Positions 2,328 to 19,423 of a stretch of 42,345 bases of DNA are shown piece after piece (position 1 is the first letter of the stretch; each line of letters starts with the position of its first letter). The DNA lies in IMG/VR virus record IMGVR_UViG_2609460346_000006, positions 1-42,345 of that record. One strand, written 5' to 3'. The notes below the pieces were generated by a model that searched no databases, was not told the DNA's origin, and worked only from the letters and a program-made list of their open reading frames with translations. Source of the stretch: a virus. Its lineage: Duplodnaviria; Heunggongvirae; Uroviricota; Caudoviricetes. The translations under genes were made by a program, and so were the position numbers.

Positions 2328-2334
2328 ATTGGCC

Positions 2335-4701: not shown

Positions 4702-4706
4702 CCGTT

Positions 4707-5369: not shown

Positions 5370-5562
5370 AACTAAGCCGCCTCGTTGAAACGACTGAGGT
5401 ATGAAGTGTTGAGTTGATTTCAGCTGGTCACACCGACGTTCACGCGTCCGCTTCACCCCTCGCACTTCCCGAAGCCTGCTGAAATTCAAGCTGCGGACCT
5501 AAGCGGTCATCGCAACGGTGAATCAGGTGGTTGCCGTATCGTTGTGTTGTTGCGATGAATTT

Positions 5563-5660
5563 ATTTAAAACTATAGTTGTTTTGTTGTCAACAACAAAAG
5601 TTGTTTTATTGGTTGTTTTAGATGTAACTGGTTGTATTTAGGATGGGTTTATTTTGTGAC
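5563..5660 (-). promoter_or_regulatory. Putative oL/pL: leftward early promoter with repressor operators
   Basis: On minus strand TTGACA (5586-5591), 17-bp spacer, TTAAAT (5563-5568); inverted repeat TTGTTG-TCAA-CAACAA overlaps the -35; repeated GGTTGT half-sites (5610-5640) match the half-sites in OR. Confidence 0.55.
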
Positions 5661-5732
5661 TTGCATCGCATAGCGATAACTGAAGGGAGATTGTGGTGGT
5701 TTTTTGAACGGTATACGTGATGAGGGGAGGGG

Positions 5733-5762
5733 ATAAAAGAAAACCCGGCACGGTGGCCGGGT
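5733..5762 (-). terminator. Rho-independent terminator after the rex-position gene
   Basis: 7-bp GC stem ACCCGGC/GCCGGGT (5743-5762) followed on the minus strand by a T-run (5733-5742). Confidence 0.7.
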
Positions 5763-5766
5763 ATCT

Positions 5767-6720
5767 TTATTCGAATGGAAGATCTATTTGCCTTTGAGGA
5801 TTCAACTGTTTTTTTACATGCTCAATTTCGAATATGGTTTTTATGGCATCTCCGATCATATATTGAGTTACTTTTAAATCTACAAGTAACATATCACCTT
5901 TAGAAAAATTTAAGGTGTTGTTATCAATATCGCTGATGAATTTCTGGTCTTTTATTTCAGCCAAAAAGCTACTGGCACCATCAGAAAACCGCCACCGGCT
6001 TCCTTCATTGAAGGAAATATTTTTAATTTGAAGGGCTTTCTCTACTGTGTACTCTGAAATTATTGATTCTGCTGGTAGATTGACTTTGAAATAATGTGCT
6101 TCTTGCTTGTTGATCGTCATGAATGTCAAACCATCATCGACAGTAGAGGCAAAGCTGTCAATGCCTTCCTGCTCTAATGGCTTACTTATAACTTCTTGTA
6201 ATGAAGAGCGAAGTTTAATATTTTTATAAAGTTCAATAACGTTACTGTCGTAGATCTCGCTTTCGTCATCAACAAAGACTTCGATGTTGCTATCAGGCAA
6301 ATTGTGTAATTTTTTTATTTTCCTTGGACCTATCCATTTTATCAGTTGAATTAGGCCTTTGCATATTTTTTCTTTAGAACCAGGACAGAGTCCAATAAAA
6401 GCAATCAAATTCGCAGCGGCTGTTGCTGAATCGCCGGATAAAAAATCAACAGCCTGTTTGAACCAAGATGTAGATGAGGCAACCAGATCTATTCCAAATG
6501 AGCCAGCTTTAAATGATGCATTGACTTTTACAGAAACAACAGTCTTGTTTCCGTAGAGAGTTTTACCGGCTTCCTCTAATGCATCTGATAGTGATAGAAG
6601 GGCAGGAGCAAGGTCTCGCACGTTCATTTCATGCGTTTCCAGTGCCGGACCGTCGTATACTATCCTGAACTTCATATCATTGGTTTCCGAATTGTTGCCC
6701 GCATCCATTATGGCATTCAC
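5767..6720 (-). CDS. Unknown 317-aa protein in the rexAB slot; candidate lysogen-expressed accessory/defence gene
   Basis: Long AT-rich ORF directly downstream of and co-oriented with cI, own terminator, followed by oL/pL; no catalytic motif, TM segment or P-loop seen; start is GTG at 6720 or ATG at 6708 (AGGTGA 8 nt upstream). Confidence 0.7.
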   Translation of the reverse strand: MNAIMDAGNNSETNDMKFRIVYDGPALETHEMNVRDLAPALLSLSDALEEAGKTLYGNKTVVSVKVNASFKAGSFGIDLVASSTSWFKQAVDFLSGDSATAAANLIAFIGLCPGSKEKICKGLIQLIKWIGPRKIKKLHNLPDSNIEVFVDDESEIYDSNVIELYKNIKLRSSLQEVISKPLEQEGIDSFASTVDDGLTFMTINKQEAHYFKVNLPAESIISEYTVEKALQIKNISFNEGSRWRFSDGASSFLAEIKDQKFISDIDNNTLNFSKGDMLLVDLKVTQYMIGDAIKTIFEIEHVKKQLNPQRQIDLPFE

Positions 6721-6781
6721 CTGATCACATATACAGTTAATTTACGATATTGTCTTAAATCTTAAAACTTCTATTGTATGG

Positions 6782-7471
6782 CTACCCATGCTTCCTATAC
6801 GTCTGCGGCATGCTCCCAATAACCTTACCGAAGATGAACACCCGGTTCATCTCGTCTTTCTCGATCGGGTCCCAAGGTGAGTAGCTCTTGTTATCAGAGA
6901 TAACCAGCAGCTTATCCTTCATCATTTGCAGACGCTTTACATGGGCTGTGTCGTCGTACAGAAACGCATAGATACCATCACCGTCGAAAGATTTAACCGT
7001 GATATCAACGAACAGCAGATCACCTGGTTCGATCGTTCCTGACATGCTGTCACCGCGTACGTTAATGATACGGATATTTTCCGCCTTCCTGCCATCGAAC
7101 ATGTGACGAGCATCGTCAAACGAATACTCAACCGAACGTAGAACTTCTACAAACTCACGGTTGATGACTCCCGGCCCGGCACTCACTTCGATATCAAGAA
7201 CGTCAATCTTAAAGTATTTGGAATGGCTGACAGTTGTTTGTATTGGTTGCACTGTACTGTCTGACATATTTCCAACGCCAGAAGATAACCATTCTGCGCG
7301 CACACCCAAAGCGTTCGCGATCTCCACGATTTTAGTTGTTTGGTTAGCTTTCCCTGTTTCGATTTTCTGAATAGCTGCTTGGCTAACCCCGACCAAATCC
7401 CCAAGCGCCTTTTGTGTAAGGCCTCGCGCTAATCTGGCTTCTTTAAGTCTTTCTGAGAGTGTTGTTTTCAT
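6782..7471 (-). CDS. CI-like prophage repressor (N-terminal HTH, C-terminal S24/LexA-like peptidase)
   Basis: 229 aa from ATG 7469-7471; HTH (…LTQKALGDLVGVSQAAIQKIETGK…), Ala-Gly cleavage site (…VSAGPG…), Ser/Lys dyad (…GDSMSG…, …HVKRL…); divergent from cro across an operator region. Confidence 0.9.
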   Translation of the reverse strand: MKTTLSERLKEARLARGLTQKALGDLVGVSQAAIQKIETGKANQTTKIVEIANALGVRAEWLSSGVGNMSDSTVQPIQTTVSHSKYFKIDVLDIEVSAGPGVINREFVEVLRSVEYSFDDARHMFDGRKAENIRIINVRGDSMSGTIEPGDLLFVDITVKSFDGDGIYAFLYDDTAHVKRLQMMKDKLLVISDNKSYSPWDPIEKDEMNRVFIFGKVIGSMPQTYRKHG

Positions 7472-7575
7472 AGTCCAAATGTACAACCAAGGTTTTATTT
7501 CATCAAACGAAAATGGTTGTTGACTAAAAACAACCATGGTTTTAATCTTGATTCAAATTAACCACGGAGGTTGTT
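7472..7575. promoter_or_regulatory. OR region: divergent pRM/pR with three TGGTTGT-type operator sites
   Basis: Sites at ~7482-7492, 7514-7524, 7529-7540; candidate pR -35 TTGACT (7520-7525) with -10 near 7541-7548; GGAGG RBS before cro ATG. Confidence 0.6.
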
Positions 7576-7806
7576 ATGAACCCAGCCATCAAAACAGCGA
7601 TCAATATCGTTGGTTCACAAAAGAAACTAGGCGCTGCCTGCGAAGTTTCACAGCAGGCCGTCTATAAGTGGCTTCACAACAAAGCAAAGGTATCCCCTGA
7701 ACATGTCGGCAGCATTGTTACGGCTACTGGTGGAGTAGTGAAGGCATACCAGATTCGCCCGGATCTTCCGAAGTTGTTTCCACACACTGAAAAGAACGCA
7801 GCTTAA
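7576..7806 (+). CDS. Cro-like HTH regulator (YdaS-like)
   Basis: 76 aa, first rightward gene divergent from cI, strong RBS, HTH-like segment (…KKLGAACEVSQQAVYKWL…). Confidence 0.75.
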   Translation: MNPAIKTAINIVGSQKKLGAACEVSQQAVYKWLHNKAKVSPEHVGSIVTATGGVVKAYQIRPDLPKLFPHTEKNAA

Positions 7807-7875
7807 ATTTCCATTTCACGCTCTTTAACAATAAGCAATCAACTTAACAGTCAATTCAAACTAAAGGAGTCAATT

Positions 7876-8415
7876 ATGCAACCACTTACATACCAACAGA
7901 CTAGCGGATTTAGCCCGACTGCGGTGATAAATCGTTCTCAAACAAAACAAGCTCCAGGCCACGAAAAAATCCGTGATGCCGTCCGCGCCTGGTCGGCTGT
8001 AGATAATCAGGATGTCGTTGCCGCACTCATTGTGAATGAGTATCGGGAGCAGGGCGGCGGCACCATCGATTTCCCTGATGATGTCAGCCGTGCACGCCAG
8101 AAGCTGTTCCGCTTCCTCGATAACAAATTCGATTCTGAAAAATACCGAAATAACGTGCGTGAACTGACCCCGGCAATTCTGGCGGTACTACCGCTGGAAT
8201 ATCGCGGTTACCTAGTTGAGCAGGATAGCTTCATGGCTCGGCTGGCTGAAATGGAAAAGGAACTCAGTGAGGCAAAGCAGGCGGTCATTCTCAACGCACC
8301 ACGCCACCAGAAACTGAAGGAGATGAGTGAAGGCATTGTGTCGATGTTTCGAGTGGACCCGGATCTGGCTGGTCCACTGATGGCGATGGTCACCACCATG
8401 CTGGGGGCAATATGA
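7876..8415 (+). CDS. CII-position regulatory protein (YdaT-like), function uncertain
   Basis: 179 aa, AGGAG RBS, sits between cro-like and O; much larger than lambda CII. Confidence 0.5.
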   Translation: MQPLTYQQTSGFSPTAVINRSQTKQAPGHEKIRDAVRAWSAVDNQDVVAALIVNEYREQGGGTIDFPDDVSRARQKLFRFLDNKFDSEKYRNNVRELTPAILAVLPLEYRGYLVEQDSFMARLAEMEKELSEAKQAVILNAPRHQKLKEMSEGIVSMFRVDPDLAGPLMAMVTTMLGAI

Positions 8416-8501
8416 CAGGTTCAGAAATGGCGAAAGCCGGTCTGCTGGAACAGAACCGACTTTCAGGTGCAAATCGTAACACACTCATTGCGGGAGGAAT
8501 T

Positions 8502-9431
8502 ATGGCAAACACTGCTGAGATATTCAATTTTCCAGTGCCGGATGCGGCACAAAAGGAGCCGCGCGTGGCAGATCTCGATGATGGTTATACGCGCATTGCA
8601 AATGAGTTGCTGGAAGCTGTGATGCTGGCCGGATTAACACAGCACCAGCTTCTGGTCTTTCTGGCTGTCATGCGCAAAACATATGGCTTTAATAAAAAAC
8701 TGGATTGGGTTAGCAACGAGCAACTTTCCGAATTAACCGGGATATTGCCGCACAAGTGTTCTGCTGCAAAAAGTGTTCTGGTAAAGCGTGGGATTTTTAT
8801 TCAGAGCGGGCGGAATACCGGCATTAATAATGTGGTCAGTGAATGGTCTACATTACCCGAATCAGGTAAGAAAAATAAAGTTTACCTGAAAGAGGTAAAT
8901 TTACCTGAATCAGGTAAAAAAAGTTTACCCAAATCAGGTAAAGGCGTTTACCCGAATCAGGTAAACACAAAAGACAAACTAACAAAAGACAATATAAAAC
9001 CTTTTTCGTCCGAGAATTCTGGCGAATCCTCTGACCAACCAGAAAACGATCTTCCTGTGGTGAAACCGGATGCTGCAATTCAGAGCGGCAGCAAGTGGGG
9101 GACAGCAGAAGACCTGACCGCCGCAGAGTGGATGTTTGACATGGTGAAGACCATCGCGCCATCAGCCAGAAAACCGAATTTTGCAGGGTGGGCTAACGAT
9201 ATCCGCCTGATGCGTGAACGTGACGGACGTAACCACCGCGACATGTGCGTGCTGTTCCGCTGGGCATGCCAGGACAACTTCTGGTCCGGTAACGTGCTAA
9301 GTCCGGCCAAACTCCGCGACAAGTGGACCCAACTCGAAATCAACCGTAACAAGCAACAGGCAGGCGTGACAGCTAGCAAACCAAAACTCGACCTGACAAA
9401 CACAGACTGGATTTACGGGGTGGATCTATGA
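8502..9431 (+). CDS. O: Replication initiator O (lambda O family, lambda-type C-terminus)
   Basis: Start at internal ATG 8502 after GGGAGG; N-domain resembles lambda O (…VADLDDGY…LAVMRKTYG…SQLSE…); C-terminus ends …TDWIYGVDL like lambda O; contains iterons. Confidence 0.85.
   Translation: MANTAEIFNFPVPDAAQKEPRVADLDDGYTRIANELLEAVMLAGLTQHQLLVFLAVMRKTYGFNKKLDWVSNEQLSELTGILPHKCSAAKSVLVKRGIFIQSGRNTGINNVVSEWSTLPESGKKNKVYLKEVNLPESGKKSLPKSGKGVYPNQVNTKDKLTKDNIKPFSSENSGESSDQPENDLPVVKPDAAIQSGSKWGTAEDLTAAEWMFDMVKTIAPSARKPNFAGWANDIRLMRERDGRNHRDMCVLFRWACQDNFWSGNVLSPAKLRDKWTQLEINRNKQQAGVTASKPKLDLTNTDWIYGVDL
8852..8964. repeat. Replication origin iterons inside O (5 copies of ~TTTACCYRAATCAGGTAAA) followed by an AT-rich stretch
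   Basis: Directly visible repeats at ~8852-8869, 8881-8899, 8900-8918, 8924-8942, 8946-8964; AT-rich 8965-9000; matches lambda ori architecture with a different iteron sequence. Confidence 0.8.
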
Positions 9432-10129
9432 AAAACATCGCCGCACAGATGATTAACTTTGACCGTGAGCAGATGCGCCGGATCGCCAACAACATGCCGG
9501 AACAGTACGACGAAAAGCCGCAGGTACAGCAGGTAGCGCAGATAATCAACGGTGTATTCAGCCAGTTACTGGCAACTTTCCCGGCGAGCCTGGCTAATCG
9601 TGACCAGAACGAACTGAACGAAATCCGCCGCCAGTGGGTTCTGGCTTTCCGGGAAAACGGGATCACCACGATGGAACAGGTGAGCGCCGGAATGCGTGTT
9701 GCCCGTCGGCAGAATAGACCATTTCTGCCATCACCCGGGCAGTTTGTTGCATGGTGCCGGGAAGAAGCATCCGTTACCGCCGGGCTGCCAAACGTCAGCG
9801 AGCTGGTTGATATGGTTTACGAGTATTGCCGGAAGCGTGGTCTGTATCCGGATGCAGAGTCTTATCCGTGGAAATCAAACGCGCACTACTGGCTGGTTAC
9901 CAACCTGTATCAGAACATGCGGGCCAATGCGTTGACTGACGCGGAATTACGGCGCAAGGCTGCCGATGAACTGTCCTGTATGACCGCGCGAATTAACCGT
10001 GGTGAGGCGATACCTGAACCAGTAAAACAACTTCCTGTCATGGGCGGTAGACCTCTAAATCGTGCACAGGCTCTGGCGAAGATCGCAGAAATCAAAGCTA
10101 AGTTTGGGCTGAAAGGAGCAATTGTATGA
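9428..10129 (+). CDS. P: Replication protein P (DnaB helicase loader)
   Basis: 233-aa translation near-identical to lambda P as recalled (MKNIAAQMINFDREQMRRIANNMPEQYDEKPQVQQVAQIINGVFSQLL…). Confidence 0.95.
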   Translation: MKNIAAQMINFDREQMRRIANNMPEQYDEKPQVQQVAQIINGVFSQLLATFPASLANRDQNELNEIRRQWVLAFRENGITTMEQVSAGMRVARRQNRPFLPSPGQFVAWCREEASVTAGLPNVSELVDMVYEYCRKRGLYPDAESYPWKSNAHYWLVTNLYQNMRANALTDAELRRKAADELSCMTARINRGEAIPEPVKQLPVMGGRPLNRAQALAKIAEIKAKFGLKGAIV

Positions 10130-10428
10130 CGGGCAAAGAGGCAATTATTCATTACTTGGGGACTCATAAGAACTTCTGTGCGCAGGACGTTGCCGCGGTA
10201 ACAGGTGCAACCGTAACCAGCATAAATCAGGCTGCGGCTAAAATGGCGCGGGCAGGAATCCTGGTCGTTGATGGTAAGGTCTGGCGAACGGTGTATTATC
10301 GGTTCGCTACCAGAGAAGAATGGGAAGGAAAGGTGAGCACGAATTTGATTTTTAAGGAGTGTCGCCAGAGTGCCGCGATGAAACGGGTATTGAGGGTATA
10401 TAAAAGAACATCAATGGGTACACAATGA
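10126..10428 (+). CDS. ren: Ren protein
   Basis: 100 aa, close match to lambda Ren (MTGKEAIIHYLGTH…ATVTSINQAAAKMARAG…). Confidence 0.9.
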   Translation: MTGKEAIIHYLGTHKNFCAQDVAAVTGATVTSINQAAAKMARAGILVVDGKVWRTVYYRFATREEWEGKVSTNLIFKECRQSAAMKRVLRVYKRTSMGTQ

Positions 10429-10495
10429 TGAAACAGGTGAGTTGAGTTCAAACTGTAGTACAATTCTCTCCAGTTTGAACAGGAAAGAATATGCT

Positions 10496-10828
10496 ATGAA
10501 TCCTTATATTTATCTTGGTGGTGCAATACTTGCAGAGGTCATTGGTACAACCTTAATGAAGTTTTCAGAAGGTTTTACACGGTTATGGCCATCTGTTGGT
10601 ACAATTATTTGTTATTGTGCATCATTCTGGTTATTAGCTCAGACGCTGGCTTATATTCCTACAGGGATTGCTTATGCTATCTGGTCAGGAGTCGGTATTG
10701 TCCTGATTAGCTTACTATCATGGGGATTTTTCGGCCAACGGTTGGACCTGCCAGCCATTATAGGCATGATGTTGATTTGTGCCGGTGTGTTGGTTATTAA
10801 TTTATTGTCACGAAGCACACCACATTAA
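10496..10828 (+). CDS. emrE: EmrE small multidrug resistance (SMR) efflux transporter
   Basis: 110 aa from internal ATG; matches E. coli EmrE (MNPYIYLGGAILAEVIGTTLMKFSEGFTRLWPSVGTIICYCASFWLLAQTLAYIPTGIAYAIWSGVGIVLISLLSW…). Confidence 0.95.
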   Translation: MNPYIYLGGAILAEVIGTTLMKFSEGFTRLWPSVGTIICYCASFWLLAQTLAYIPTGIAYAIWSGVGIVLISLLSWGFFGQRLDLPAIIGMMLICAGVLVINLLSRSTPH

Positions 10829-11083
10829 AAATAATTTGTTTTTAAACGACTAAAATATGGAGGCTCGTATATTTATATGGGCCTCGTTTTATGCTTTTTG
10901 TTAATGTCTTTAGTTTTTATTCATTCTTTTGTGCTTTCAAGATTATGGTGTAAGAAAATTGCAATGCGATTATTGTTGTATATTCAAAATAATGTGACCT
11001 TAATTGTCTTTTTAAATAAAAATTAAACAAAAATCATATCTCACCACTAAGGTTTATAAAAGCATACTTTAGCAGGTGTCACC

Positions 11084-12610
11084 ATGAAAAAAGCCATAGC
11101 ATATATGCGATTTTCATCACCAGGTCAGATGTCTGGTGATTCATTAAACCGCCAGAGAAGGCTTATTACTGAATGGCTAAAGGTAAATAGTGATTATTAC
11201 CTTGATACCGTAACGTATGAAGATTTGGGGTTAAGCGCATTCAATGGAAAGCATGCACAATCAGGAGCTTTTTCGGAATTTTTAGATGCTATAGAACATG
11301 GTTATATATTGCCAGGGACTACATTGTTAGTTGAAAGTCTGGACAGACTTTCAAGAGAAAAAGTCGGTGAAGCGATTGAGCGTCTGAAATTGATTTTGAA
11401 TCACGGTATTGATGTTATAACTCTTTGCGATAATACAGTCTATAATATTGACTCATTGAATGAGCCATATTCATTAATAAAAGCCATACTTATAGCACAA
11501 AGGGCAAATGAAGAAAGCGAGATAAAGTCAAGTCGGGTTAAATTATCATGGAAGAAAAAACGGCAGGATGCACTGGAGTCAGGCACGATTATGACGGCTT
11601 CTTGTCCGAGATGGCTCTCATTGGATGACAAAAGAACGGCTTTTGTTCCAGACCCCGACAGGGTGAAAACTATTGAGCTAATTTTTAAACTCAGGATGGA
11701 AAGGCGCTCATTGAATGCAATAGCCAAGTATTTAAATGATCATGCTGTAAAGAATTTCTCAGGAAAAGAAAGTGCATGGGGACCTTCTGTAATTGAAAAA
11801 TTATTAGCGAATAAAGCTCTGATAGGTATATGCGTACCTTCATATCGTGCAAGAGGGAAAGGGATAAGTGAAATCGCTGGCTATTATCCCAGAGTCATAT
11901 CAGATGATTTGTTTTACGCTGTACAGGAAATTCGGTTGGCACCTTTTGGTATTAGCAATAGTAGCAAGAATCCTATGCTAATAAATCTACTTCGAACAGT
12001 TATGAAGTGTGAGGCTTGTGGTAATACCATGATTGTTCATGCGGTATCTGGAAGTTTGCATGGCTATTATGTTTGTCCGATGAGAAGATTACATCGATGT
12101 GACAGACCATCAATAAAAAGAGATTTGGTTGATTATAATATCATTAATGAATTGCTTTTTAATTGTAGCAAAATTCAACCAGTTGAAAACAAGAAAGATG
12201 CTAATGAAACTTTAGAGTTAAAAATTATTGAGCTTCAGATGAAAATTAATAATTTAATCGTTGCATTGTCTGTCGCGCCTGAAGTTACCGCTATAGCAGA
12301 GAAAATAAGACTATTAGATAAGGAATTACGAAGGGCTTCGGTATCATTAAAAACTTTGAAGAGTAAAGGGGTGAGTTCACTTGGTGATTTTCATGCTATT
12401 GATTTAACCAGTAAAAATGGGCGAGAGCTATGTCGTACACTTGCCTATAAAATATTCGAAAAAATTATAATTAATACAGATAATAAAACCTGTGATATCT
12501 ATTTTATGAATGGCATTGTTTTTAAACACTATCCTTTAATGAAAGTAATATCCGCCCAGCAGGCGATAAGTACTCTTAAATATATGGTTGATGGTGAGAT
12601 TTATTTTTGA
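11084..12610 (+). CDS. ybcK: Large serine recombinase (YbcK-like)
   Basis: 508 aa; N-terminal resolvase-type catalytic domain (…AIAYMRFSSPGQ… with catalytic Ser, …LLVESLDRLSR…), Cys-rich zinc-ribbon region and coiled-coil C-terminus; AT-rich. Confidence 0.8.
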   Translation: MKKAIAYMRFSSPGQMSGDSLNRQRRLITEWLKVNSDYYLDTVTYEDLGLSAFNGKHAQSGAFSEFLDAIEHGYILPGTTLLVESLDRLSREKVGEAIERLKLILNHGIDVITLCDNTVYNIDSLNEPYSLIKAILIAQRANEESEIKSSRVKLSWKKKRQDALESGTIMTASCPRWLSLDDKRTAFVPDPDRVKTIELIFKLRMERRSLNAIAKYLNDHAVKNFSGKESAWGPSVIEKLLANKALIGICVPSYRARGKGISEIAGYYPRVISDDLFYAVQEIRLAPFGISNSSKNPMLINLLRTVMKCEACGNTMIVHAVSGSLHGYYVCPMRRLHRCDRPSIKRDLVDYNIINELLFNCSKIQPVENKKDANETLELKIIELQMKINNLIVALSVAPEVTAIAEKIRLLDKELRRASVSLKTLKSKGVSSLGDFHAIDLTSKNGRELCRTLAYKIFEKIIINTDNKTCDIYFMNGIVFKHYPLMKVISAQQAISTLKYMVDGEIYF

Positions 12611-12934
12611 GTAATAATCACTTTTTCAACCGTGCTATGGTATGAAAGTAAAGTGACTAATATGATATTAACTATCTTGAACGAAGCGCCCTGAGCTATA
12701 GTTTTACTATAGGCACTGCCACTGGATGTTGGCATTCTTGCTCTAGTAGCTCAACAATACCCAATCACAAAACAATTCACTGATAACAAACTTTGTGCAC
12801 GTGCTTGGTTATGGCGAACAGGTGATGTTAACCTCTTGCCTGAATGCCACTCCACTTCATTAAGTATCTGAGCACCGAGAGGCTGGTCACGCCCCCATTA
12901 AAAATAATTTCTTTTGAATCGAGTGAAATAGGTT

Positions 12935-12961
12935 AGCCCGCATAAGTGCGGGCTGCTTTTT
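12935..12961 (+). terminator. Rho-independent terminator (possibly bidirectional) between ybcK-like and the esterase gene
   Basis: Hairpin AGCCCGCA-TAAG-TGCGGGCT followed by GCTTTTT; abuts the esterase stop codon. Confidence 0.6.
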
Positions 12962-14003
12962 ACAGGTCAGCGTTTGTTTTTTGTTGTTGGGTAGCGGTTT
13001 TTATGGGGGTTCCCAGGTTTTTAGTAAACCACTCAACAACTCTGTTTATAATAATTGGCTGATACCATGTATTATCGCCATGCTCAGCCCCTTCTACCAG
13101 AACGTACTCAGCGTTATCGCCGTTCTTCTTCAACATCCTGAATAGTTTGGCGCTTTGCTCAGGTGAAACCAGAGTGTCTTTGCTACCATGCATAATAAGA
13201 AATGGGGGTTTTACTCCTTTCATATGTCCGATTGGACTGGCGTTTAGCGCTTTTTCTTTTGACGCTGTTATGGGGGCTCCCGCAAAACTTCTGAATGCAG
13301 GGCCATTGATCATTAAGGCTTCGGTTACGGCAGGAGATCGATGAACCTCCTGCACTGATTCAGGGAACCCCTCGCCAATATTCAACAAGTCAGAAATCCC
13401 ATAAAGTGTGGCAACTGCCTGAACATCTGCTGATTGCTGAAGAAAGTCACCTTTATTAAAGGTTTTGTCACCATTTGTAGTTCCCATCATCTGGGCAAGC
13501 CATCCACCGGCAGAGTCACCCAGAACTCCGATTCTTTGAGGATCAATCCCATAATCGCTGGCATGTTCTCTCAAGTAACGTATTGCAGCTTTCCCATCCT
13601 CAACTGGTGCTGGAAATGTATCAGGAATTGTTCTGTATTCTACAGCGGCCACAACAAAACCAGCTTCAGCCAGAGCCATTCTCATTTCAATAAATTTGTC
13701 ATGTTCAGAAGACATGAATCCGCCGCCGGGATAATAAATAATGGCTGGTCTTAAATCATTTGTTCGCGGGACAAGAACTGACATGTGAAGCTGTCTGACA
13801 GAACGAGTTCCTTTTATCTGGGAATAAACAACATCACCAATGAGATCGACCTGGTTTCTGGTGGGTGAAACACTAATGATATCTGCACCCGGGGTGTAAC
13901 CAGGAAGATTAGTCTGGACAGGTGTTGCACAACTCCCGACCGACATGGCCATTGACATACCATACAATAGTGTTGCAGATGATAATATCTTGTTAATTTT
14001 CAT
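12960..14003 (-). CDS. Secreted alpha/beta-hydrolase esterase/lipase, probable lipoprotein
   Basis: 347 aa; signal peptide with lipobox-like …SVGSC…; HGGG-like …YYPGGGF… and nucleophile elbow …GDSAGG… of the alpha/beta hydrolase fold. Confidence 0.8.
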   Translation of the reverse strand: MKINKILSSATLLYGMSMAMSVGSCATPVQTNLPGYTPGADIISVSPTRNQVDLIGDVVYSQIKGTRSVRQLHMSVLVPRTNDLRPAIIYYPGGGFMSSEHDKFIEMRMALAEAGFVVAAVEYRTIPDTFPAPVEDGKAAIRYLREHASDYGIDPQRIGVLGDSAGGWLAQMMGTTNGDKTFNKGDFLQQSADVQAVATLYGISDLLNIGEGFPESVQEVHRSPAVTEALMINGPAFRSFAGAPITASKEKALNASPIGHMKGVKPPFLIMHGSKDTLVSPEQSAKLFRMLKKNGDNAEYVLVEGAEHGDNTWYQPIIINRVVEWFTKNLGTPIKTATQQQKTNADL

Positions 14004-14352
14004 GTTTTACATGCCTTGACTTATCGGATGAAATTCTCTTACTGAATTTAACGGCAGTTTAATAGCAGTACAACTCGTGGTAGCTAGGGAAATATCCCAG
14101 TCGTGGTTAAGGTTGTACTTGACGGCTATTATTTCAACAATGCTTAAAGTGAGAGCTTAAGGTTATGCGTATGTTTTACAGTCCGAGTAGATTCTGACCA
14201 ATAGCTTCTTTGTATAATTCTGTCAGAAATAAATCTTGGCTTGCATGAAGTTTGAGACCTTATCTTGTTTGATTATGAATAATCAATTCGCCATAATTGT
14301 ATCACCGGAGCCTGAACAACTCCTGTGACTTCTGCGCTAAACGGGGACGTTT

Positions 14353-14454
14353 ATGCGCACATACAATCCAACCTATCTTCTCCATTCACAGATGCAGAAA
14401 TGCACCTGCGATTTTTTGCATCCAGCGTTTGGCCTCTGCGGAGGTGAATCGTGA
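14353..14454 (+). CDS. Small ORF upstream of ybcN (YlcH-like, 33 aa)
   Basis: ATG 14353 with upstream GGGGA; stop TGA overlaps the ybcN GTG start; below ORF-track cutoff. Confidence 0.35.
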
Positions 14455-14906
14455 ACCTCCCACAAGATGGCATCAAATTGCATCGCGGCAACTTCACCGC
14501 TTTCGGCCAGCAGATCCAGCCTTATCTGGAGGACGGAAAATGCTTTCGCATGGTGCTTAAACCGTGGCGTGAGAAACGCAGTCTTTCCCAGAATGCACTC
14601 AGCCATATGTGGTACAGCGAAATCAGTGAATACCTCATCAGCAGGGGGAAATCGTTCGCTACCGCAGCATGGGTAAAAGATGCTCTCAAACACACATACC
14701 TCGGTTATGAAACCAAGGACCTGGTTGATGTCGTAACCGGCGAAATCACTACTATCCAGTCGTTACGCCATACCTCCGATCTTGATACCGGAGAGATGTA
14801 TGTCTTCCTGTGTAAGGTTGAAGCCTGGGCGATGAATATTGGCTGCCACCTGACTATTCCGCAGCGCTGCGAGTTCCAGCTGCTGCGCGACAAGCAGGAG
14901 GCGTAA
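14451..14906 (+). CDS. ybcN: YbcN / NinB-family protein
   Basis: 151 aa, GTG start after GGAGG; matches the DLP12 YbcN sequence as recalled (…[20 protein letters not shown]…). Confidence 0.8.
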
Positions 14907-15076
14907 TGGCTACACCGCTTATTCGTATCATGAACGGACACATCTACAAAGTACCAAATCGTCGTAAGCGTAAACCTGAGCTGAAGCCATCCGAAATACC
15001 AACACTGCTCGGGTATACCGCCAGCCTGGTTGATAAAAAATGGTTGCGACTGGCAGCAAGGAGGAATCATGGCTGA
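14906..15076 (+). CDS. ninE: NinE
   Basis: 56-aa ORF ([56 protein letters not shown]) found by manual translation; ATG overlaps ybcN stop. Confidence 0.7.
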   Translation: MATPLIRIMNGHIYKVPNRRKRKPELKPSEIPTLLGYTASLVDKKWLRLAARRNHG

Positions 15077-15359
15077 TTTGAGAAAAGCAGCGCGTGGTCG
15101 GGAATGCCAGGTAAGAATCCCTGGCGTATGTAATGGCAATCCTGAAACGTCAGTACTGGCACATATCCGGCTGGCTGGATTGTGCGGTACCGGTATCAAA
15201 CCGCCAGACCTGATTGCCACCATTGCATGTTCTGCCTGCCACGACGAAATCGACCGTCGCACGCATTTTGTTGACGCTGGATATGCAAAAGAATGCGCGC
15301 TGGAAGGTATGGCGAGAACACAGGTTATCTGGTTGAAAGAGGGGGTTATTGAGGCGTGA
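15069..15359 (+). CDS. ybcO: YbcO-like protein (DUF1364, putative nuclease)
   Basis: 96 aa from internal ATG 15069 after AGGAGG; Cys/His-rich (…[11 protein letters not shown]…CSACHDEID…); DLP12 gene order. Confidence 0.75.
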
Positions 15360-15718
15360 ATACCTACAGCATCACATTACCTTGGCCTCCGAGCAATAAT
15401 CGCTATTACCGCCATAATCGTGGGCGCACGCACGTCAGCGCAGAGGGGCAGGCATACTGCGATAACGTCGCCCGAATCATTAAAAACGCAATGCTGGATA
15501 TCGGCTTGGCTATGCCAGTGAAAATCCGTATTGAGTGCCACATGCCGGATCGCCGTCGCCGTGACCTGGATAATCTGCAAAAAGCCGCTTTTGACGCACT
15601 CACCAAAGCAGGTTTCTGGCTGGATGATATTCAGGTCGTTGATTACCGTGTTGTGAAGATGCCCGTTACCAAAGGTGGGAAGCTGGAGCTGACCATCACC
15701 GAACTGGGAGATGAATGA
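15356..15718 (+). CDS. rusA: RusA Holliday-junction resolvase
   Basis: 120 aa matching E. coli RusA ([34 protein letters not shown]…). Confidence 0.95.
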
Positions 15719-15855
15719 TGTTTGAGTCTTATATGGCAGAGCGTCTTCGCCGCCGCTGGGTGCGCCTGCGCTTATATCGTTTTCCTGGTTCTGTTTTGAC
15801 CGATTACCGAATACTGAAGAATTACGCCAAAACCCTGACAGGAGCAGGAGTATGA
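15715..15855 (+). CDS. ylcG: YlcG-like small protein
   Basis: 46-aa ORF ([46 protein letters not shown]) overlapping the rusA stop; found by manual translation. Confidence 0.6.
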
Positions 15856-15940
15856 AGTCAGAGATAACAATCAACTAATACTGTTTTGTTGATTTTTGCT
15901 TGTAATTGGCGTTCTGGTCTGATTTTTGTGGAGTAAGTTG

Positions 15941-16324
15941 ATGCGTGATATTCAGATGGTTCTTGAGCGTTGGGGAGCGTGGGCGGCTAATAATCATGAA
16001 GATGTGACCTGGTCGTCCGTTGCCGCCGGTTTTAAGGGATTAATTCCTTCAAAAGTAAAATCTCGCCCGCAATGTTGTGACGATGACGCGATGATCATTT
16101 GCGGGTGCATGGCCCGTCTGAAAAAGAACAACAGCGATTTACACGATTTATTAGTAGATTATTATGTATGTGGTATGACATTCATGTCACTGGCAAGTAA
16201 GCATTGCTGCTCGGATGGTTATATCGGGAAAAGGTTACAGAAGGCTGAGGGCATAATTGAAGGGATGTTAATGGCATTAGATATCCGGTTAGATATGGAT
16301 ATCGTTGCTAATAATTCTAATTGA
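15941..16324 (+). CDS. quuD: Late-gene antiterminator Q (QuuD / phage 82 Q type)
   Basis: 127 aa from ATG 15941 (GGAG upstream); Cys-rich zinc-binding region (…[16 protein letters not shown]…); position after rusA/ylcG. Confidence 0.85.
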
Positions 16325-16370
16325 TATGCAATTGTTTACTAAAAGTTATTAAAAATGGGGCGTGGAAACG
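16320..16370 (+). promoter_or_regulatory. Putative pR' late promoter / qut region
   Basis: TTGATA overlapping the Q stop with AT-rich downstream sequence; position immediately 3' of Q and ~170 bp before a + strand terminator; exact -10 not resolved. Confidence 0.35.
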
Positions 16371-16375
16371 CCCCC
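16358..16375 (-). terminator. Hairpin GGGGCGT-GGAAA-ACGCCCC; possible porin-gene terminator
   Basis: Perfect 7-bp GC stem followed on the minus strand by ATTTTTAA; could instead be part of the pR' leader. Confidence 0.35.
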
Positions 16376-16461
16376 AAAATAAAGGGTAATATATAACAGA
16401 AGGTTTATATAGTAAGAAGCAAGGTAGTGCTTCTAAAGGAAGTGGCTTGAGGGCTCCACTT

Positions 16462-16502
16462 ATATGTTGCGGAGGCAAAGCCTCCCGCAACATATCTTTT
16501 TC
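16462..16502 (+). terminator. tR'-like rho-independent terminator downstream of Q
   Basis: ~15-bp stem (ATATGTTGCGGAGGC/GCCTCCCGCAACATAT) followed by CTTTTT. Confidence 0.65.
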
Positions 16503-16512
16503 GTAAGTCAGA

Positions 16513-17595
16513 TTAGAACTGATAAACCAGACCTACAGCGACGATGTCGTCGGTATCAATACCAGCTGTTTTGGTAAACTTACTATCGTCAATTAAGTTG
16601 ATTTTGTAATCAACAAAAGTGGACATGTTTTTATTAAAGTAGTAAGTAGCACCGACATCGACATACTTGACTAAGTCTCGGTCACCATGAACACCAAGGT
16701 CTTTACCTTTTGACTGAAGGTAAGCAACAGATGGTCGCAGACCGAAGTCAAACTGATATTGTGCTACTGCTTCAAAGTTTTGTGCTTTGTTTGCAATATG
16801 GTTATTACCAAAAACGGTCATATTCTGAGTTTCAGAATATGTGGTAGCCAGATAGATATTGTTCGCATCATATTTCAGGCCTGCAGCCCATACTTCCGCA
16901 TTTTTGCCGGAGGCATTGAATTTGCTCTTACCATAGGCGACCTGACCGTCAGTGCGATCTGATTTAGCATAGGTTGCACCCACGCCGAATCCTTCATACT
17001 CATAAGTAGTGGAGAAACCGAAACCATCACCATTGGCTTCAGTTACGTCAGTGCGGTCATTTTTACCCTGATACTGAGCAGCAAAGTTCAGGCCATCGAC
17101 CAGACCAAAGAAGTCGTTGTTACGATAAGTTGCAACACCAGTAGTGCGACCAGTCATGAACACATCTGTTTGGGTCCAGGTATCACCACCGAATTCTGGC
17201 AGGACGTCAGTCCACGCACCGATGTCGTATGCTACACCGTAGTTACGGCCGTAATCGATTGAGCCGTAATCACCAAATTTCAGGCCTGCAAATGCAAGAC
17301 GGGTTTTGTCTTTGGAAGAACCTTGAGATTCAGCACGGTTGCCTTTGAATTCATATTCCCACTGACCGAAACCAGTCAGTTGATCGTTGATTTGGGTTTC
17401 ACCTTTGAAGCCAAGACGGGCATAAGTAGTATCACCATCATCTGCATCATTAGAGGAAAAGTAGTGCTTGGCATTAACTTTCCCGTATAGATCCAGCTTG
17501 TTACTGTCTTTATTATAAATTTCAGCTGCCTGAGCAGACATCGCCATCAGTACTGATGCAGCTACAGCAGAAATTGCCACTGTTAATTTTTTCAT
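16513..17595 (-). CDS. nmpC: OmpC/NmpC-family general porin (phage moron)
   Basis: 360 aa; signal peptide ending …SAQA; porin-like sequence ending in the C-terminal …VGLVYQF; antisense between Q and lysis genes as for DLP12 nmpC. Confidence 0.9.
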
Positions 17596-18023
17596 TGTAC
17601 GCCCTTTTTTTTGAACTATTATTAAAAAATGATGTCACTGCGCGATAAATATTCATCTAATCAATGCGATTATTTCAAGATGTAAGTTTTAGTTTCTCAT
17701 TTAATTTGTGAAGTAGATCTCTATTTTTATCTGAACCTTTTCTATCTAATCCTATTCATGGCTCTTGTTTGAACGAAAATAAATCTATTAGCTAATTTAT
17801 ATTAATGGCACTTATTTATAAGCGCTCTATAATTCTTTAGCTTAATTTAAACAAACTAAAAATAACATCGGAAATTATTCATTGGTTATTTGTTGAAGTT
17901 TTCTTATGTATTTGTGGTGGTGTTTTGAACACTCGGTGGCATTCTCACAAATATCATTTAGTAGTTTACGTACGTAAAAAATTGGTTATGCTGTTAAGAG
18001 TGGTTACTTCGTCACACAGCTTA

Positions 18024-18055
18024 AACCCGCCGTCGAGCGGGTTTTTCCATTTTTT
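18024..18055 (+). terminator. Rho-independent terminator upstream of the lysis cassette
   Basis: Stem AAACCCGC/GCGGGTTT followed by TTCCATTTTTT. Confidence 0.6.
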
Positions 18056-18184
18056 GAGTCTCGATATTAGCTGATAACCCAATACCTGAGTTATTCACTG
18101 ACTCCAAATCTGTTACGTTTCTGCCTTTATTGCGATACGTAGTATCCCCTTAATTTACACCCGCTTTGTCTGCGAGGTGGGGTT

Positions 18185-18400
18185 ATGAAATCCATGGATA
18201 AGTTAACAACGGGTGTCGCCTATGGCACCTCAGCAGGTAGTGCCGGTTACTGGTTTTTACAGCTGCTCGATAAAGTCACGCCCTCACAGTGGGCAGCAAT
18301 AGGTGTGCTGGGTAGCCTGGTATTTGGCCTGCTGACGTACCTGACAAACCTTTATTTCAAGATTAAAGAAGATAAGCGCAAGGCTGCGAGAGGTGAATAA
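18185..18400 (+). CDS. Class II holin / pinholin (S21 family)
   Basis: 71 aa, two TM segments, dual-start motif MKSM, charged C-terminus; matches phage 21 S / EssD-type sequence as recalled. Confidence 0.9.
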
Positions 18401-18897
18401 TGTCGCCATCATTACGCAAGGCTATTGCTGCTGCTATTGGTGGTGGGGCTGTTGCCATAGCGTCTGTGCTCATCACTGGTCCGAGTGGTGACGATGGCCT
18501 GGAAGGTGTCAGCTACATACCATACAAAGATATCGTTGGCGTATGGACTGTATGTCACGGACACACCGGAAAAGACATCATGCTCGGTAAAACGTATACC
18601 GAAGCAGAATGCAAAGCCCTCCTGAATAAAGACCTTGCCACTGTCGCCAGACAAATTAACCCGTACATCACAGTCGATATACCGGAAACAACGCGCGGCG
18701 CTCTTTACTCATTCGTTTACAACGTGGGCGCTGGCAATTTCAGAACATCGACGCTTCTTCGCAAAATAAACCAGGGCGATATCAAAGGCGCATGTGATCA
18801 GCTACGGCGCTGGACATACGCTGGCGGTAAGCAATGGAAAGGGCTGATGACTCGCCGTGAGATTGAGCGTGAAGTCTGTTTGTGGGGGCAACAATGA
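18400..18897 (+). CDS. SAR endolysin (lysozyme, R21 type)
   Basis: 165 aa; N-terminal Gly/Ala-rich signal-anchor-release segment then lysozyme catalytic region (…[19 protein letters not shown]…). Confidence 0.9.
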
Positions 18898-18985
18898 GCA
18901 TGATTTGCTTTTTCATGGCAGCGTTGCTCGCATTGAATGGCAACGATGCGTGGCCGTGGTTTCTGGCCGTTGGGGTGTTGATGTC

Positions 18986-19423
18986 ATGAGTCGGTTAACC
19001 GCGATTATCTCCGCTCTGATTATCTGCATCGTCGTCTGTCTGTCATGGGCGGTCAATCATTACCGTGATAACGCCATGACCTACAAAGAGCAGCGCGATA
19101 AGGCCGCATCCACAATCGCTGACATGCAGAAGCGTCAACGTGATGTAGCAGAACTTGACGCCAGATACACAAAGGAGCTTGCTGATGCTAATGCGACTAT
19201 CGAAAGTCTCCGTGCTGATGTTTCTGCTGGTCGTAAGCGCCTGCAAGTCGCCGCCACCTGTGCAAAGTCAACGACCGGAGCCAGCAGCATGGGCGATGGA
19301 GAAAGCCCAAGACTTACAGCAGATGCTGAACTCAATTATTACCGTCTCCGAAGTGGAATCGACAGGATAACCGCGCAGGTTAACTACCTGCAGGAATACA
19401 TCAGGACGCAATGCCTTCGATGA
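18986..19423 (+). CDS. Rz i-spanin
   Basis: 146 aa from internal ATG; N-terminal TM (…[18 protein letters not shown]…) and coiled-coil periplasmic domain; DLP12 RzpD-like. Confidence 0.85.
19185..19370 (+). CDS. Rz1 o-spanin lipoprotein embedded in Rz (+1 frame)
   Basis: 61 aa with lipobox …VVSAC… and Pro-rich mature region, entirely inside Rz; start could be 19185 or 19191. Confidence 0.75.

Follow-up and report, generated by a model that had tools for sequence, protein, structure and literature searches.

A probable accessory-gene slot with emrE, the serine recombinase gene ybcK and an esterase gene in an E. coli lambdoid prophage

The window, i.e. the whole stretch of 42,345 nt that was analysed, carries a block (10429-14352) made up of emrE, ylcJ, ybcK, a remnant of a P22AR-C antirepressor-like gene and a convergent esterase gene, which is flanked by ren on one side and by ylcH-ybcN on the other (Table 1). 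A sequence-only reading had recognised emrE, a 508-aa serine recombinase and a lipoprotein esterase as cargo in the nin region; the positions and identities of the three genes are confirmed by NCBIfam, Pfam and a PROSITE pattern, the esterase indeed runs against emrE and ybcK, and the placement as nin-region cargo is supported. For emrE the ORF had been chosen correctly, but with its start at 10440, a TTG that lies further upstream in this ORF. With 38.8% GC, the block is the second lowest among 769 windows of the same length (mean 46.0%, sd 2.5%), in agreement with the AT-richness noticed earlier. Within it, GC content is 40.5% for emrE, 27.1% for the spacer, 35.9% for ybcK and 44.4% for the esterase gene, compared with 53.6% for P, 48.5% for ren and 51.5% for ybcN. 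The spacers of 255, 349 and 349 nt have the predicted lengths (about 250-350 bp), but are not the empty non-coding stretches they were taken for: the first contains the emrE terminator and the 49-aa ORF ylcJ, the second contains the frameshifted, truncated P22AR-C remnant and a terminator, and the third consists of the esterase upstream region and the start of the ylcH-ybcN module.

Table 1. Features of the block and its flanks (window coordinates)
Feature	Position	Strand	Description and evidence
ren	10126..10428	+	Left flank; PHROG Ren-like exclusion protein, 1.3e-41
emrE	10496-10828	+	110-aa SMR multidrug/quaternary-cation efflux transporter, accessory "moron" gene; NCBIfam, Pfam
Direct repeat, copy 1	10820..10871	+	emrE 3' end and native flank; identical core CATTAAAAATAATTT at 10823-10837
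Terminator-like hairpin	10860..10893	+	Intrinsic type with T-run, 3' of emrE; terminator scan: 11-bp stem, then GTTTTATGCT
ylcJ	10877..11026	+	Small hydrophobic 49-aa ORF; intact translation
ybcK	11084-12610	+	508-aa large serine recombinase, intact; Pfam, PHROG, fold
ybcK 3' flank	12611..12649	+	39 nt 3' of the stop, common to all ybcK-bearing variants; alignment, variation starts beyond
P22AR-C remnant	12718..12890	+	C-terminal-domain (antirepressor-like) pseudogene; frameshifted, lacking the start codon and cut short at either end
Direct repeat, copy 2	12893..12944	+	Vestigial emrE 3' end (CCC CAT TAA) and diverged emrE 3'-flank allele; core at 12896-12910
GC-rich hairpin	12934..12955	.	Between repeat copy 2 and esterase stop; 9-bp stem, 6 GC pairs, then CTTTTT; T-run on + strand
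Esterase gene	12960-14003	-	347-aa putatively exported alpha/beta-hydrolase esterase (BD-FAE/hormone-sensitive-lipase-like), predicted lipoprotein-type signal; Pfam, PHROG
Esterase upstream region	14004..14267	-	Presumed promoter region; always travels with the esterase gene
ylcH	14353-14454	+	Conserved right flank (14353..14906)
ybcN/NinB-like	14451-14906	+	Conserved right flank (14353..14906)

EmrE scores 240.6 bits against NCBIfam SMR_efflux_EmrE (cut-off 226), matches Pfam Multi_Drug_Res at 2e-35 and retains Glu14. EmrE pumps toxic cationic compounds out of the cell in a proton-coupled manner, so that emrE would be a lysogenic-conversion gene. The counterpart of ylcJ in K-12 is annotated as YlcJ, that in MS1494 as hypothetical, and a family search that included NCBIfam and PHROG returned no match for it.

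All three domains of YbcK (Resolvase, Recombinase and Zn_ribbon_recom) exceed the Pfam cut-offs, and the protein matches the PHROG 95 integrase family at 3e-120. R9, S11, Q15, D87, R88, R91, R140, E143/E144 and the four cysteines of the zinc ribbon are invariant among 20 homologues, dN/dS is 0.06-0.07, and a structure search with the AlphaFold2 model (pLDDT 81) retrieves serine integrases over their full length, PhiC31 and Bxb1 among them, with E down to 1e-18. Judged from these residues, the modelled integrase fold and the dN/dS of about 0.06, YbcK looks fully functional. Like the integrases of PhiC31, Bxb1, TP901-1 and the Listeria A118 type, it has an N-terminal catalytic domain with Y-x-R-x-S-S-x-x-Q, a recombinase domain, a 4-Cys zinc ribbon and a long helical hairpin (residues 368-427), and its model aligns over the full length with solved integrase-att complexes; sequence identity to these integrases, however, is just 14-19%, and there is no PDB match by sequence. 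Unlike them, YbcK has no known attP/attB pair or recombination directionality factor, and its host phage already has a tyrosine integrase and an excisionase. In K-12, ybcK is silenced by an upstream Rho-dependent terminator (PMC4150792).

The esterase matches Pfam BD-FAE (151 bits, 3e-44) and the PHROG esterase family (7e-129), has a dN/dS of about 0.2, and its N-terminus fits the PROSITE lipoprotein pattern, with a lipobox at Cys25. The closest solved structures are 6nkf (Lip_vut4, 1e-36), 6mly (GH43-CE) and 6xyc (acetyl xylan esterase), with which it shares the alpha/beta-hydrolase type, the PGGG oxyanion motif (at 92) and the GDSAG nucleophile elbow (at residue 162), but unlike these BD-FAE/hormone-sensitive-lipase-type enzymes it is encoded by a phage and carries a predicted signal peptide of the lipoprotein type. 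By its position, the hairpin that follows repeat copy 2 may also end the convergent esterase transcript. In the AZ159, Rb-50 and window types alike, the esterase gene is accompanied by its upstream region, in which the best promoter-like match is only 8/12; no convincing sigma-70 promoter was found for ybcK or the esterase gene, the best matches (8-9/12) being at the level of shuffled sequence.

The boundaries of the slot are mosaic joints. On the left, the joint lies in the 3' end of ren (about 10402-10419), where homology with ren-only phages such as Nissle stops at 10392-10401 and a free-standing emrE cassette begins at 10419; this cassette, located without ybcK at the fliE-yedF locus, is 92% identical to window positions 10419-10836. 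On the right, the joint lies at 14267/14268, and K-12, E04 and O157 all rejoin the window exactly at 14268. Behind ybcK, homology breaks off at 12649 (K-12), 12676 (O157) or 12886 (E04). The sequence-only reading had set its mobile island against a conserved nin region with identical boundaries, no recombination sites and an inactive recombinase; the joints are indeed shared and recombination sites were not found in the block, whereas the recombinase appears intact.

Among 5,426 complete E. coli genomes, the arrangement of the window is present in 172-174, while emrE-ylcJ-ybcK forms a constant module found in about 1,399. The esterase gene without ybcK, adjoining a 3.5-kb inverse autotransporter, occurs in several hundred further genomes and is commoner than the window setting. 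O157 prophages have emrE-ylcJ-ybcK without a third gene, in the Nissle prophage ren is directly followed by ninB, and a further variant without ybcK (L102 type) contains an intact P22AR gene and a HEPN gene. Across 80 IMG/VR loci, constant flanks enclose a gap between ybcK and ylcH that takes at least 10 lengths (320-2593 nt); its fillers include ybcL-ybcM, a P22AR-C ORF, several unknown ORFs, IS3 and BstA (3.6e-121). In other loci the P22AR-C version is intact (107 aa; Pfam P22_AR_C at 1e-15). By tblastn, the window's remnant corresponds to aa 99-154 of the intact 202-aa L102 protein, in two frames. The block is a patchwork of independently swapped, already catalogued accessory genes and not one unit; the single island proposed earlier does not survive this independent assortment.

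The same slot and gene order, renD-emrE-ylcJ-ybcK-ybcL-ybcM-ylcH-ybcN (b0542-b0547), is present in DLP12 of E. coli K-12. In the comparison with DLP12 that the sequence-only reading had proposed, the two are 97% identical over window positions 10215-12649 (ren-emrE-ylcJ-ybcK) and 94% identical from 14268 onward, while DLP12 has ybcL-ybcM in place of the P22AR-C stub and the convergent esterase gene. DLP12 is defective, has a ren split by IS3 and is located at argU, whereas the prophage of the window occupies icd and its late region is P22-like. An identical order, ren-emrE-ybcK-esterase(-)-ninB/ybcN-ninE-ybcO-rusA, is shown by Perceval (OV696612, Bievrevirus) and PhiR47_2 (PV340567), both described as plaque-forming phages, and also by Lambda_4C10, 4A7, D2, 1W and 3W. 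YbcK of this group is 99.4% identical, and 12 deposited E. coli phages have YbcK at ≥98% identity. The annotation of Perceval already reads "Multidrug transporter EmrE", "Large serine recombinase" and "alpha/beta hydrolase", but none of the records of this group gives YbcK a function. They are deposited as free phage genomes, whose late and immunity regions may differ from those of the window. Two phages, bv_4C10 and 4A7, can be induced and form plaques (10.64898/2026.05.26.727859).

The slot resembles morons and temperate-phage hot spots in its presence or absence between conserved neighbours, deviant composition, own predicted terminators and alternative cargo at one position, including the defence gene BstA. 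Morons were reportedly described in lambda/HK97 by Juhala and colleagues in 2000, accessory and defence hot spots are said to have been found in P2/P4 by Rousset and colleagues in 2022, and BstA is reportedly a known defence gene from the work of Owen and colleagues in 2021. Unlike a simple moron or hot spot, the slot is compound, with a constant module and a variable sub-slot. The AT-rich block is probably a variable accessory-gene slot of DLP12-type/Bievrevirus-type E. coli lambdoid phages, with the replication genes P/ren on one side and the conserved ylcH-ybcN (NinB-like) module on the other.

The version in the window consists of at least three separately inherited pieces: the constant left module emrE-terminator-ylcJ-ybcK; the decayed stub of a P22AR-C antirepressor-like gene, presumably a former occupant of the slot; and a self-contained, oppositely oriented esterase cassette of upstream region, lipoprotein-signal gene and terminator, which would be active in the prophage and whose product would be exported to the envelope. 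The search for repeats and recombinase sites proposed earlier returned one direct-repeat pair (52 nt at 77% identity, spacing 2073 bp), with a 15-bp identical core that is found exactly twice in the whole window, and neither flanking inverted repeats nor recognisable YbcK substrate sites in or around the block. The left neighbour of copy 2 is P22AR codon 154, and the P22AR gene continues in E04; the emrE flank of the O157 type is an allele that stands between the two copies; and the Rb-50 emrE-esterase junction joins the left side of copy 1 to the right side of copy 2. Since both copies are alleles of the emrE flank, they remain similar for about 34 nt beyond the right edge of the core. The repeat represents a duplication of the emrE 3' flank, for which recombination between two emrE-bearing phages is the best explanation. 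The arrangement in the window most likely goes back to one illegitimate crossover between two co-resident relatives, an E04-like phage with emrE-ylcJ-ybcK-P22AR' and an Rb-50-like phage in which emrE is followed by the convergent esterase gene, and this crossover would have left the vestigial second emrE 3' end as a direct repeat of 15-52 nt. The rare Rb-50-like arrangement (2 of the 5,426 genomes) could alternatively be a deletion derivative of the window type rather than a parent.

The same repeat would be expected if ylcJ-ybcK-P22AR' (about 10838-12910, 2,073 bp) were a small element mobilised by the large serine recombinase at the emrE 3' end, with the crossover in CATTAAAAATAATTT. Such an element would be flanked by the core, Rb-50 and a second genome would show its natural "empty site", repeat copy 1 contains a near-palindrome (TTAAAAATAA-T-TTGTTTTTAA), and the recombinase is intact and constrained; moreover, emrE-esterase (Rb-50) and emrE-ybcL (fliE locus, compared with K-12) are independent ybcK-less arrangements with nearly the same left junction just past the emrE stop, as a site-specific process would also predict. 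However, the right "end" is located in the broken middle of the P22AR-C ORF and is therefore not a conserved terminus, and the K-12 right junction is at other, unrelated sequence. The dyad does not exceed what shuffled sequence gives (z = -0.8), ybcK was always accompanied by emrE in the E. coli genomes sampled and in the IMG/VR loci, empty sites are very rare, and the copies grade into each other as flank alleles. A nested element is thus improbable, and the earlier suggestion that the recombinase belongs to one or excises the cargo loses its footing with a sole direct repeat that is emrE flank abutting the middle of a pseudogene.

It is unlikely that YbcK provides an alternative integration route, with attP near ybcK and attB in the chromosome, beside the icd-proximal tyrosine integrase. 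Homologues with 50-59% identity are located, like integrases, at prophage ends adjoining ssrA, lepA or other host genes, and the fold, the strong purifying selection and the position of ybcK within the early rightward operon fit such a role. By contrast, each of the 78 informative IMG/VR loci has ybcK in an internal position (P-ren-emrE to the left, ylcH-ybcN to the right), as do all sampled E. coli genomes, about 60 records among thousands, a sample in which rare ybcK contexts could be missed, and a prophage permuted at ybcK was not found among them; tyrosine integrases are used by the window's prophage (icd) and by DLP12 (argU), and no att-like conserved non-coding site was identified. If YbcK captured or exchanged variable cargo directly 3' of its own gene, in an integron-like manner, this would explain why the hypervariable part starts beside ybcK, with only 39 nt past its stop held in common, at least 10 fillers before ylcH, a right joint fixed at 14268 and a constrained recombinase. 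This is nevertheless very improbable: most variation lies downstream of the P22AR-C ORF and not at ybcK, the slot is equally variable in phages without ybcK (AZ159 type, L102 P22AR-HEPN type, Nissle), no repeated site was found at the cassette borders, the core motif occurring only twice, and breakpoints differ between variants as in ordinary lambdoid mosaicism. Scarcely credible is a switch in which YbcK flips the esterase segment or another part of the block to control expression, as the earlier reading had also considered. The esterase gene does oppose its neighbours, and the serine recombinases PinQ and PinR of other E. coli cryptic prophages invert DNA (PMC12529663), but YbcK is a large integrase-type recombinase and not a small invertase, the esterase orientation relative to ybcN is the same in 4 of 4 arrangements examined, and no inverted repeats flank anything in the block, the best candidates being 24 nt long at 75% and a 16-nt pair that has one arm inside ybcK and is not conserved in K-12.

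The sequence does not show YbcK to move or flip the block. Within the reading as a variable accessory-gene slot, a purely "passenger" YbcK leaves the strong purifying selection beside the most variable part of the slot without an account, which speaks against that reading; our committed guess is that YbcK still recombines sites elsewhere, for instance on another phage or element or at an alternative attachment site, and does not rearrange the cargo here. YbcK would have been captured from another prophage lineage, in which its homologues are found at the prophage-chromosome junction. Other YbcK homologues occupy the same early-right slot in lambdoid prophages of Pantoea and Atlantibacter.

The interval between ren and ylcH-ybcN is filled by the genes compiled in the table below. 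Its GC content is 38.8% (10429-14352), the second-lowest value among 769 windows of the same length (mean 46.0%), as against 46-54%, and third-position GC (GC3) is 0.29-0.37 in the block versus 0.51-0.63 in P, ren and ybcN. Together with the family scores of the encoded proteins, these values bear out the sequence-only reading of an AT-rich block carrying emrE, a recombinase and an esterase. The spacers do have the lengths of roughly 250-350 bp attributed to them, but they are not empty, since they hold ylcJ, two terminator-like hairpins and the remnant of a P22AR-C antirepressor-like gene. The 52-aa P22AR stub of the window gave no match in Pfam, so that its identity was taken from intact homologues. 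The terminator scan found eight sites where 3.2 were expected, promoter scans gave promoter-like matches no better than chance, and no known RNA family was detected in 9500-15500 at E values up to 1. An anti-phage defence role for the genes of the slot and its flanks was considered and rejected, as PADLOC returned no match for emrE, ylcJ, YbcK, the esterase, ren, ylcH or YbcN.

Features in and beside the AT-rich slot (window coordinates)
Feature	Position	Strand	Source	Remark
ren	10126-10428		ORF list	left flank
emrE	10496-10828	+	ORF list	
terminator-like hairpin	10860-10885		terminator scan	
ylcJ (as in K-12)	10877-11026	+	ORF list	49 aa
ybcK, recombinase	11084-12610	+	ORF list	508 aa
P22AR C-terminal-domain gene remnant	~12718-12890			frameshifted, start-less, truncated at both ends
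terminator-like hairpin	12934-12955		terminator scan	
hydrolase (esterase)	12960-14003	-	ORF list	347 aa
ylcH	14353-14454		ORF list	right flank
ybcN	14451-14906		ORF list	right flank

The window belongs to an E. coli lambdoid prophage integrated beside icd, with a tyrosine integrase and an excisionase at the left end. Positions 1-19098 are 99.9% identical to strain MS1494, and the late region (19000-42345) is P22-like, with a portal, gp10, a P22-type capsid and DNA-transfer proteins. None of the complete E. coli genomes in the collection has the right-hand 23 kb contiguously (best coverage 72%); the window is a mosaic that is not represented whole there. When compared with the K-12 prophage DLP12, as had been suggested from the sequence, ren-emrE-ylcJ-ybcK is 97% identical and ylcH-ybcN onward 94% identical, while DLP12 has ybcL-ybcM where the window has the P22AR stub and the esterase. 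The exact order of the window, ren-emrE-ybcK-esterase(-)-ninB/ybcN, is present in Escherichia phage Perceval, where the products are annotated as EmrE, “Large serine recombinase, DLP12 YbcK homolog” and alpha/beta hydrolase, and phage PhiR47_2 has the same gene order. YbcK is encoded at 98% identity or more in 12 deposited E. coli phages, two of which, bv_4C10 and 4A7, are described as inducible and plaque-forming (10.64898/2026.05.26.727859). The genes of the slot, their order and their annotations had all been made public before, and the slot itself is routine, being a textbook DLP12-type accessory region with its exact order in GenBank phage records. In practice it serves as a map, showing that emrE (biocide/cation efflux) and a probably exported esterase are carried on inducible, plaque-forming E. 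coli phages. Another antisense accessory gene of the window (16513-17595, minus strand), with the Q antiterminator on one side and the lysis genes on the other, encodes an intact 360-aa OmpC/NmpC-type porin, whereas the homologue nmpC of DLP12 is broken by IS5.

That the block is a single island, as the sequence-only reading had it, was not borne out when 5,426 complete E. coli genomes were compared and, separately, 80 IMG/VR loci with near-identical ybcK were surveyed; the modules assort independently. The arrangement of the window occurs in 172-174 of the 5,426 genomes, while emrE-ylcJ-ybcK occurs in ~1,399, with ybcK linked to emrE on its left in all of the matches listed. In O157 prophages emrE-ylcJ-ybcK is followed by only ~400 nt before ylcH; E04 carries a 169-aa ORF besides a P22AR-C pseudogene that is longer; in Nissle ninB comes directly after ren; and one O157 strain has, without ybcK, an intact 202-aa P22AR gene and a HEPN gene in the slot. 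Throughout the 80 IMG/VR loci, P-ren-emrE-ylcJ-ybcK on the left and ylcH-ybcN on the right are constant, and the ybcK-ylcH interval has at least ten lengths (320 to 2,593 nt). Among its fillers are ybcL-ybcM, a P22AR-C ORF (105-109 aa) that matches Pfam at 1e-15, ORFs without family (83, 118, 169 and 260 aa), an inserted IS3 and, with a PADLOC match at 3.6e-121, the abortive-infection protein BstA. On the right, K-12, E04 and O157 all return to window homology at exactly 14268; on the left the joint is at 10402-10419 or, in variants that lack ren, where P ends. Slot genes are present in some phages and absent from close relatives with the same conserved neighbours on both sides. The slot, from P/ren to ylcH, behaves as a hot spot for accessory (moron/defence) genes within a lambdoid mosaic, at which genes for efflux, adhesins, esterases and anti-phage functions (BstA, HEPN) interchange. 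Very probably it is a known mosaic accessory slot, with nothing that points to an action of the recombinase on its neighbours.

Individual variants of the slot were seen in several relatives. The 309-aa BstA of IMG/VR UViG_2534681673_000008 (locus L135, 12161-13090) is at the position equivalent to the esterase slot (window 12960-14267). Another variant (locus L102, 3626-4422) contains a HEPN-domain gene pair, for which PDC-M28A gave a weak match. The IS3-family element of one IMG/VR relative (locus L163, 11256-12484) is located between ybcK and the P22AR-C ORF, in an otherwise conserved post-ybcK stretch.

EmrE matches NCBIfam NF042984 over residues 1-110 of 110 with 240.6 bits (cut-off 226), and its translation, MNPYIYLGGAILAEVIG, has Glu at position 14. 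The membrane-embedded Glu14 is required for proton/substrate coupling in EmrE. The gene, with a putative terminator of its own, would provide an efflux pump in lysogenic conversion. It is also found as a 418-bp cassette, corresponding to window 10419-10836 at 92% identity, which in ~2,300 complete E. coli genomes runs straight into ybcL-ybcM at the fliE-yedF locus of the chromosome. This second emrE (E. coli AR_0015, locus L092, 7001-8937) is without ylcJ or ybcK and is next to fliE, with IS200 and prophage debris alongside; the unit has the look of a relic of this slot in another prophage.

The second cargo gene encodes a predicted BD-FAE or hormone-sensitive-lipase-type esterase, with 151.4 bits against Pfam PF20434 (BD-FAE; cut-off 26.8), an oxyanion-hole PGGG at residue 92 and a nucleophile elbow GDSAG (G-x-S-x-G) at residue 162. 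Its N-terminus, MKINKILSSATLLYGMSMAMSVGS-C25, fits the PROSITE PS51257-type lipoprotein pattern, a predicted lipidation. The product is probably exported, likely as a lipoprotein, and its ester substrate would be in the envelope or beyond it, and a dN/dS of ~0.2 indicates that the gene is in use. It may constitute a self-contained, antisense-oriented cassette. In several hundred further genomes the esterase is found without ren, emrE or ybcK, adjoining a 3.5-kb inverse-autotransporter gene, and in this type the window homology begins at 12956. This commoner partner (L003, 2417-7048; also loci L005 and L006) is a 1,183-aa intimin/invasin-like inverse autotransporter that replaces ren-emrE-ybcK. 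In some strains ISEc23 is located at the 3′ end of the esterase gene or splits it.

YbcK has the domain order of large serine recombinases (LSRs), with a resolvase catalytic domain (PF00239, residues 4-161, 68.6 bits, cut-off 23.3) followed by a recombinase domain (PF07508, residues 191-284, 53.9 bits, cut-off 21.1) and a zinc-ribbon (PF13408, residues 302-357, 32.9 bits, cut-off 25.3). Among 20 homologues, down to 30% identity, the catalytic positions Y7-x-R9-x-S11-S-x-x-Q15, D87-R88-x-x-R91 and R140/E143/E144 are invariant, as are the zinc-ribbon cysteines C309, C312, C331 and C339. Because a sequence search of the PDB gave no match for YbcK, the fold was predicted and then searched. The AlphaFold2 model (pLDDT 81) has a predicted long helical hairpin formed by helices 368-397 and 401-427, and Foldseek aligned it over its full length with the serine integrase-att complexes 9dxd/9dxh (E 1e-18), as well as with PhiC31 and Bxb1. 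All five E. coli alleles compared are intact, with a dN/dS of 0.06-0.07 at dS up to 0.18. YbcK thus does not look like an inactive recombinase, a case considered in the sequence-only reading. It can be regarded as an intact integrase-type recombinase kept by selection, with no recognizable substrate sites in this island, and its most likely role, at modest confidence, would be continued site-specific recombination on sites elsewhere. The literature found on its function comprises only a study of a Rho-dependent terminator upstream of ybcK (PMC4150792) and one in which its overexpression improved tolerance to the terpene sabinene (PMC7181518). The residual interest of the region lies in this LSR, which roughly one in four complete E. 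coli genomes encodes under strong constraint and next to a hypervariable slot.

Whether YbcK acts within the slot depends on the repeats and junctions. A search for inverted and direct repeats over 10300-14600 gave one notable pair, a 52-nt direct repeat (D1; 10820-10871 and 12893-12944, 77% identity), the copies of which are 2,073 bp apart and share an identical 15-nt core, CATTAAAAATAATTT, at 10823 and 12896. The core is absent from the rest of the window at up to two mismatches, and the search for recombination sites found no other conserved non-coding site beyond this pair. In Rb-50 and one other genome, emrE is joined straight to the esterase (ren-emrE-esterase(-)-ylcH), and this junction consists of exactly the left side of copy 1 and the right side of copy 2, so that what sets the window apart from it is a segment of 2,073 bp, ylcJ-ybcK-P22AR′, with the repeat at its borders. 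A nested element mobilized by the LSR would look like this, and the two genomes provide its unoccupied site, although an insertion and a deletion would leave the same trace. A site-specific origin would also account for the two ybcK-less junctions having nearly the same left boundary, just past the emrE stop. The ends, however, do not behave as element termini. Copy 1 consists of the last emrE codons and the native terminator region, while copy 2 comprises CCC CAT TAA and a diverged version of that region, and the emrE-flank allele of the O157 type is intermediate between the two. Copy 2 is thus likely a vestige of a second emrE 3′ end, which accounts for the similarity continuing for ~34 nt past the core. 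The sequence to the left of copy 2 is codon 154 of a P22AR-C ORF that runs for 48 more codons in E04, so that the “right end” is a break within a gene rather than a conserved terminus; the right breakpoints vary (12649, 12676, 12886 and 12892). K-12 has yet another junction, and its ybcK-bearing insert, judged against the fliE-locus emrE-ybcL junction, ends at a different, unrelated sequence. Furthermore, dyad symmetry or hairpin formation of the core is no better than in shuffled sequence, and E. coli ybcK is always located between P-ren-emrE and ylcH-ybcN among the matches listed and in the IMG/VR loci. With ends that differ between variants and no unrelated target contexts, the assignment of the recombinase to a nested element, as proposed earlier, was not supported and is very unlikely. 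The core pair is better explained, on its sequence, as a duplicated emrE flank than as att-type sites. That copy 2 might be the tail of a second SMR pseudogene was also considered and rejected, because the translation upstream of 12893 has no similarity to EmrE and contains the P22AR-C remnant instead.

An inversion of the cargo by the recombinase, in the manner of a Hin/Gin/Pin-type switch, is extremely improbable, as 10300-14600 contains no meaningful inverted repeats flanking the segment and a single orientation was seen in all arrangements. A 16-nt inverted pair (11185-11200/12611-12626, 15/16 complementary), with one arm inside the ybcK coding region and the other directly after its stop, was dismissed, being near chance expectation and not conserved in K-12. 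The simplest history of the window would be one illegitimate crossover between E04-like and Rb-50-like prophages. Prophages of this kind are commonly found together in the same cell, as the median number of places per genome that match the region is two. The Rb-50-type genomes are rare enough that they may be deletion derivatives. It is unlikely that YbcK is active and is kept by lambdoid phages, under strong purifying selection, for catalysing site-specific gain, loss or exchange of cargo in the slot, or that it provides a second route of integration. If it did, the 2,073-bp segment, present or absent at the CATTAAAAATAATTT core, would exemplify such a change of cargo, and either role would be new for a serine integrase in a phage that already has a tyrosine integrase.

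Relatives of YbcK at 50-59% identity occupy the last position of prophages in Atlantibacter, Ewingella and Erwinia, 3′ of a tail-fibre assembly gene and abutting ssrA, lepA or other host genes, a position which suggests that they act as integrases there. Others, in Pantoea dispersa and Atlantibacter RC6, are located in the same early-right slot of lambdoid prophages with their own tyrosine integrase. In Atlantibacter the terminal protein shares 83% identity with the internal one, indicating a recent change of gene position. In the Atlantibacter pair (L096, 10001-13484; L009, 5732-14887), a 59%-identical LSR ends a Mu/P2-tailed prophage ~540 nt from the 3′ end of ssrA (tmRNA), and the 83%-identical copy of the second strain, within a lambdoid prophage, has a C5-methylase on one side and DinI/NinG/Q on the other. 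In Yersinia enterocolitica (locus L087, 6464-12232), a 55%-identical homologue has a lambdoid tail-fibre/autotransporter block on one side and, on the other, a P2-like prophage with its ogr end, occupying the usual position of P2 int. Several homologues (L089, 9212-9845; L096, 9092-9684; L097, 12207-12772) are accompanied by a conserved pair of small genes of ~80 aa and 107-130 aa, with weak Peptidase_S24 similarity, which are upstream of the YbcK homologue in two genera and downstream in a third, and could encode a partner (a directionality factor or regulator) or be merely linked cargo.
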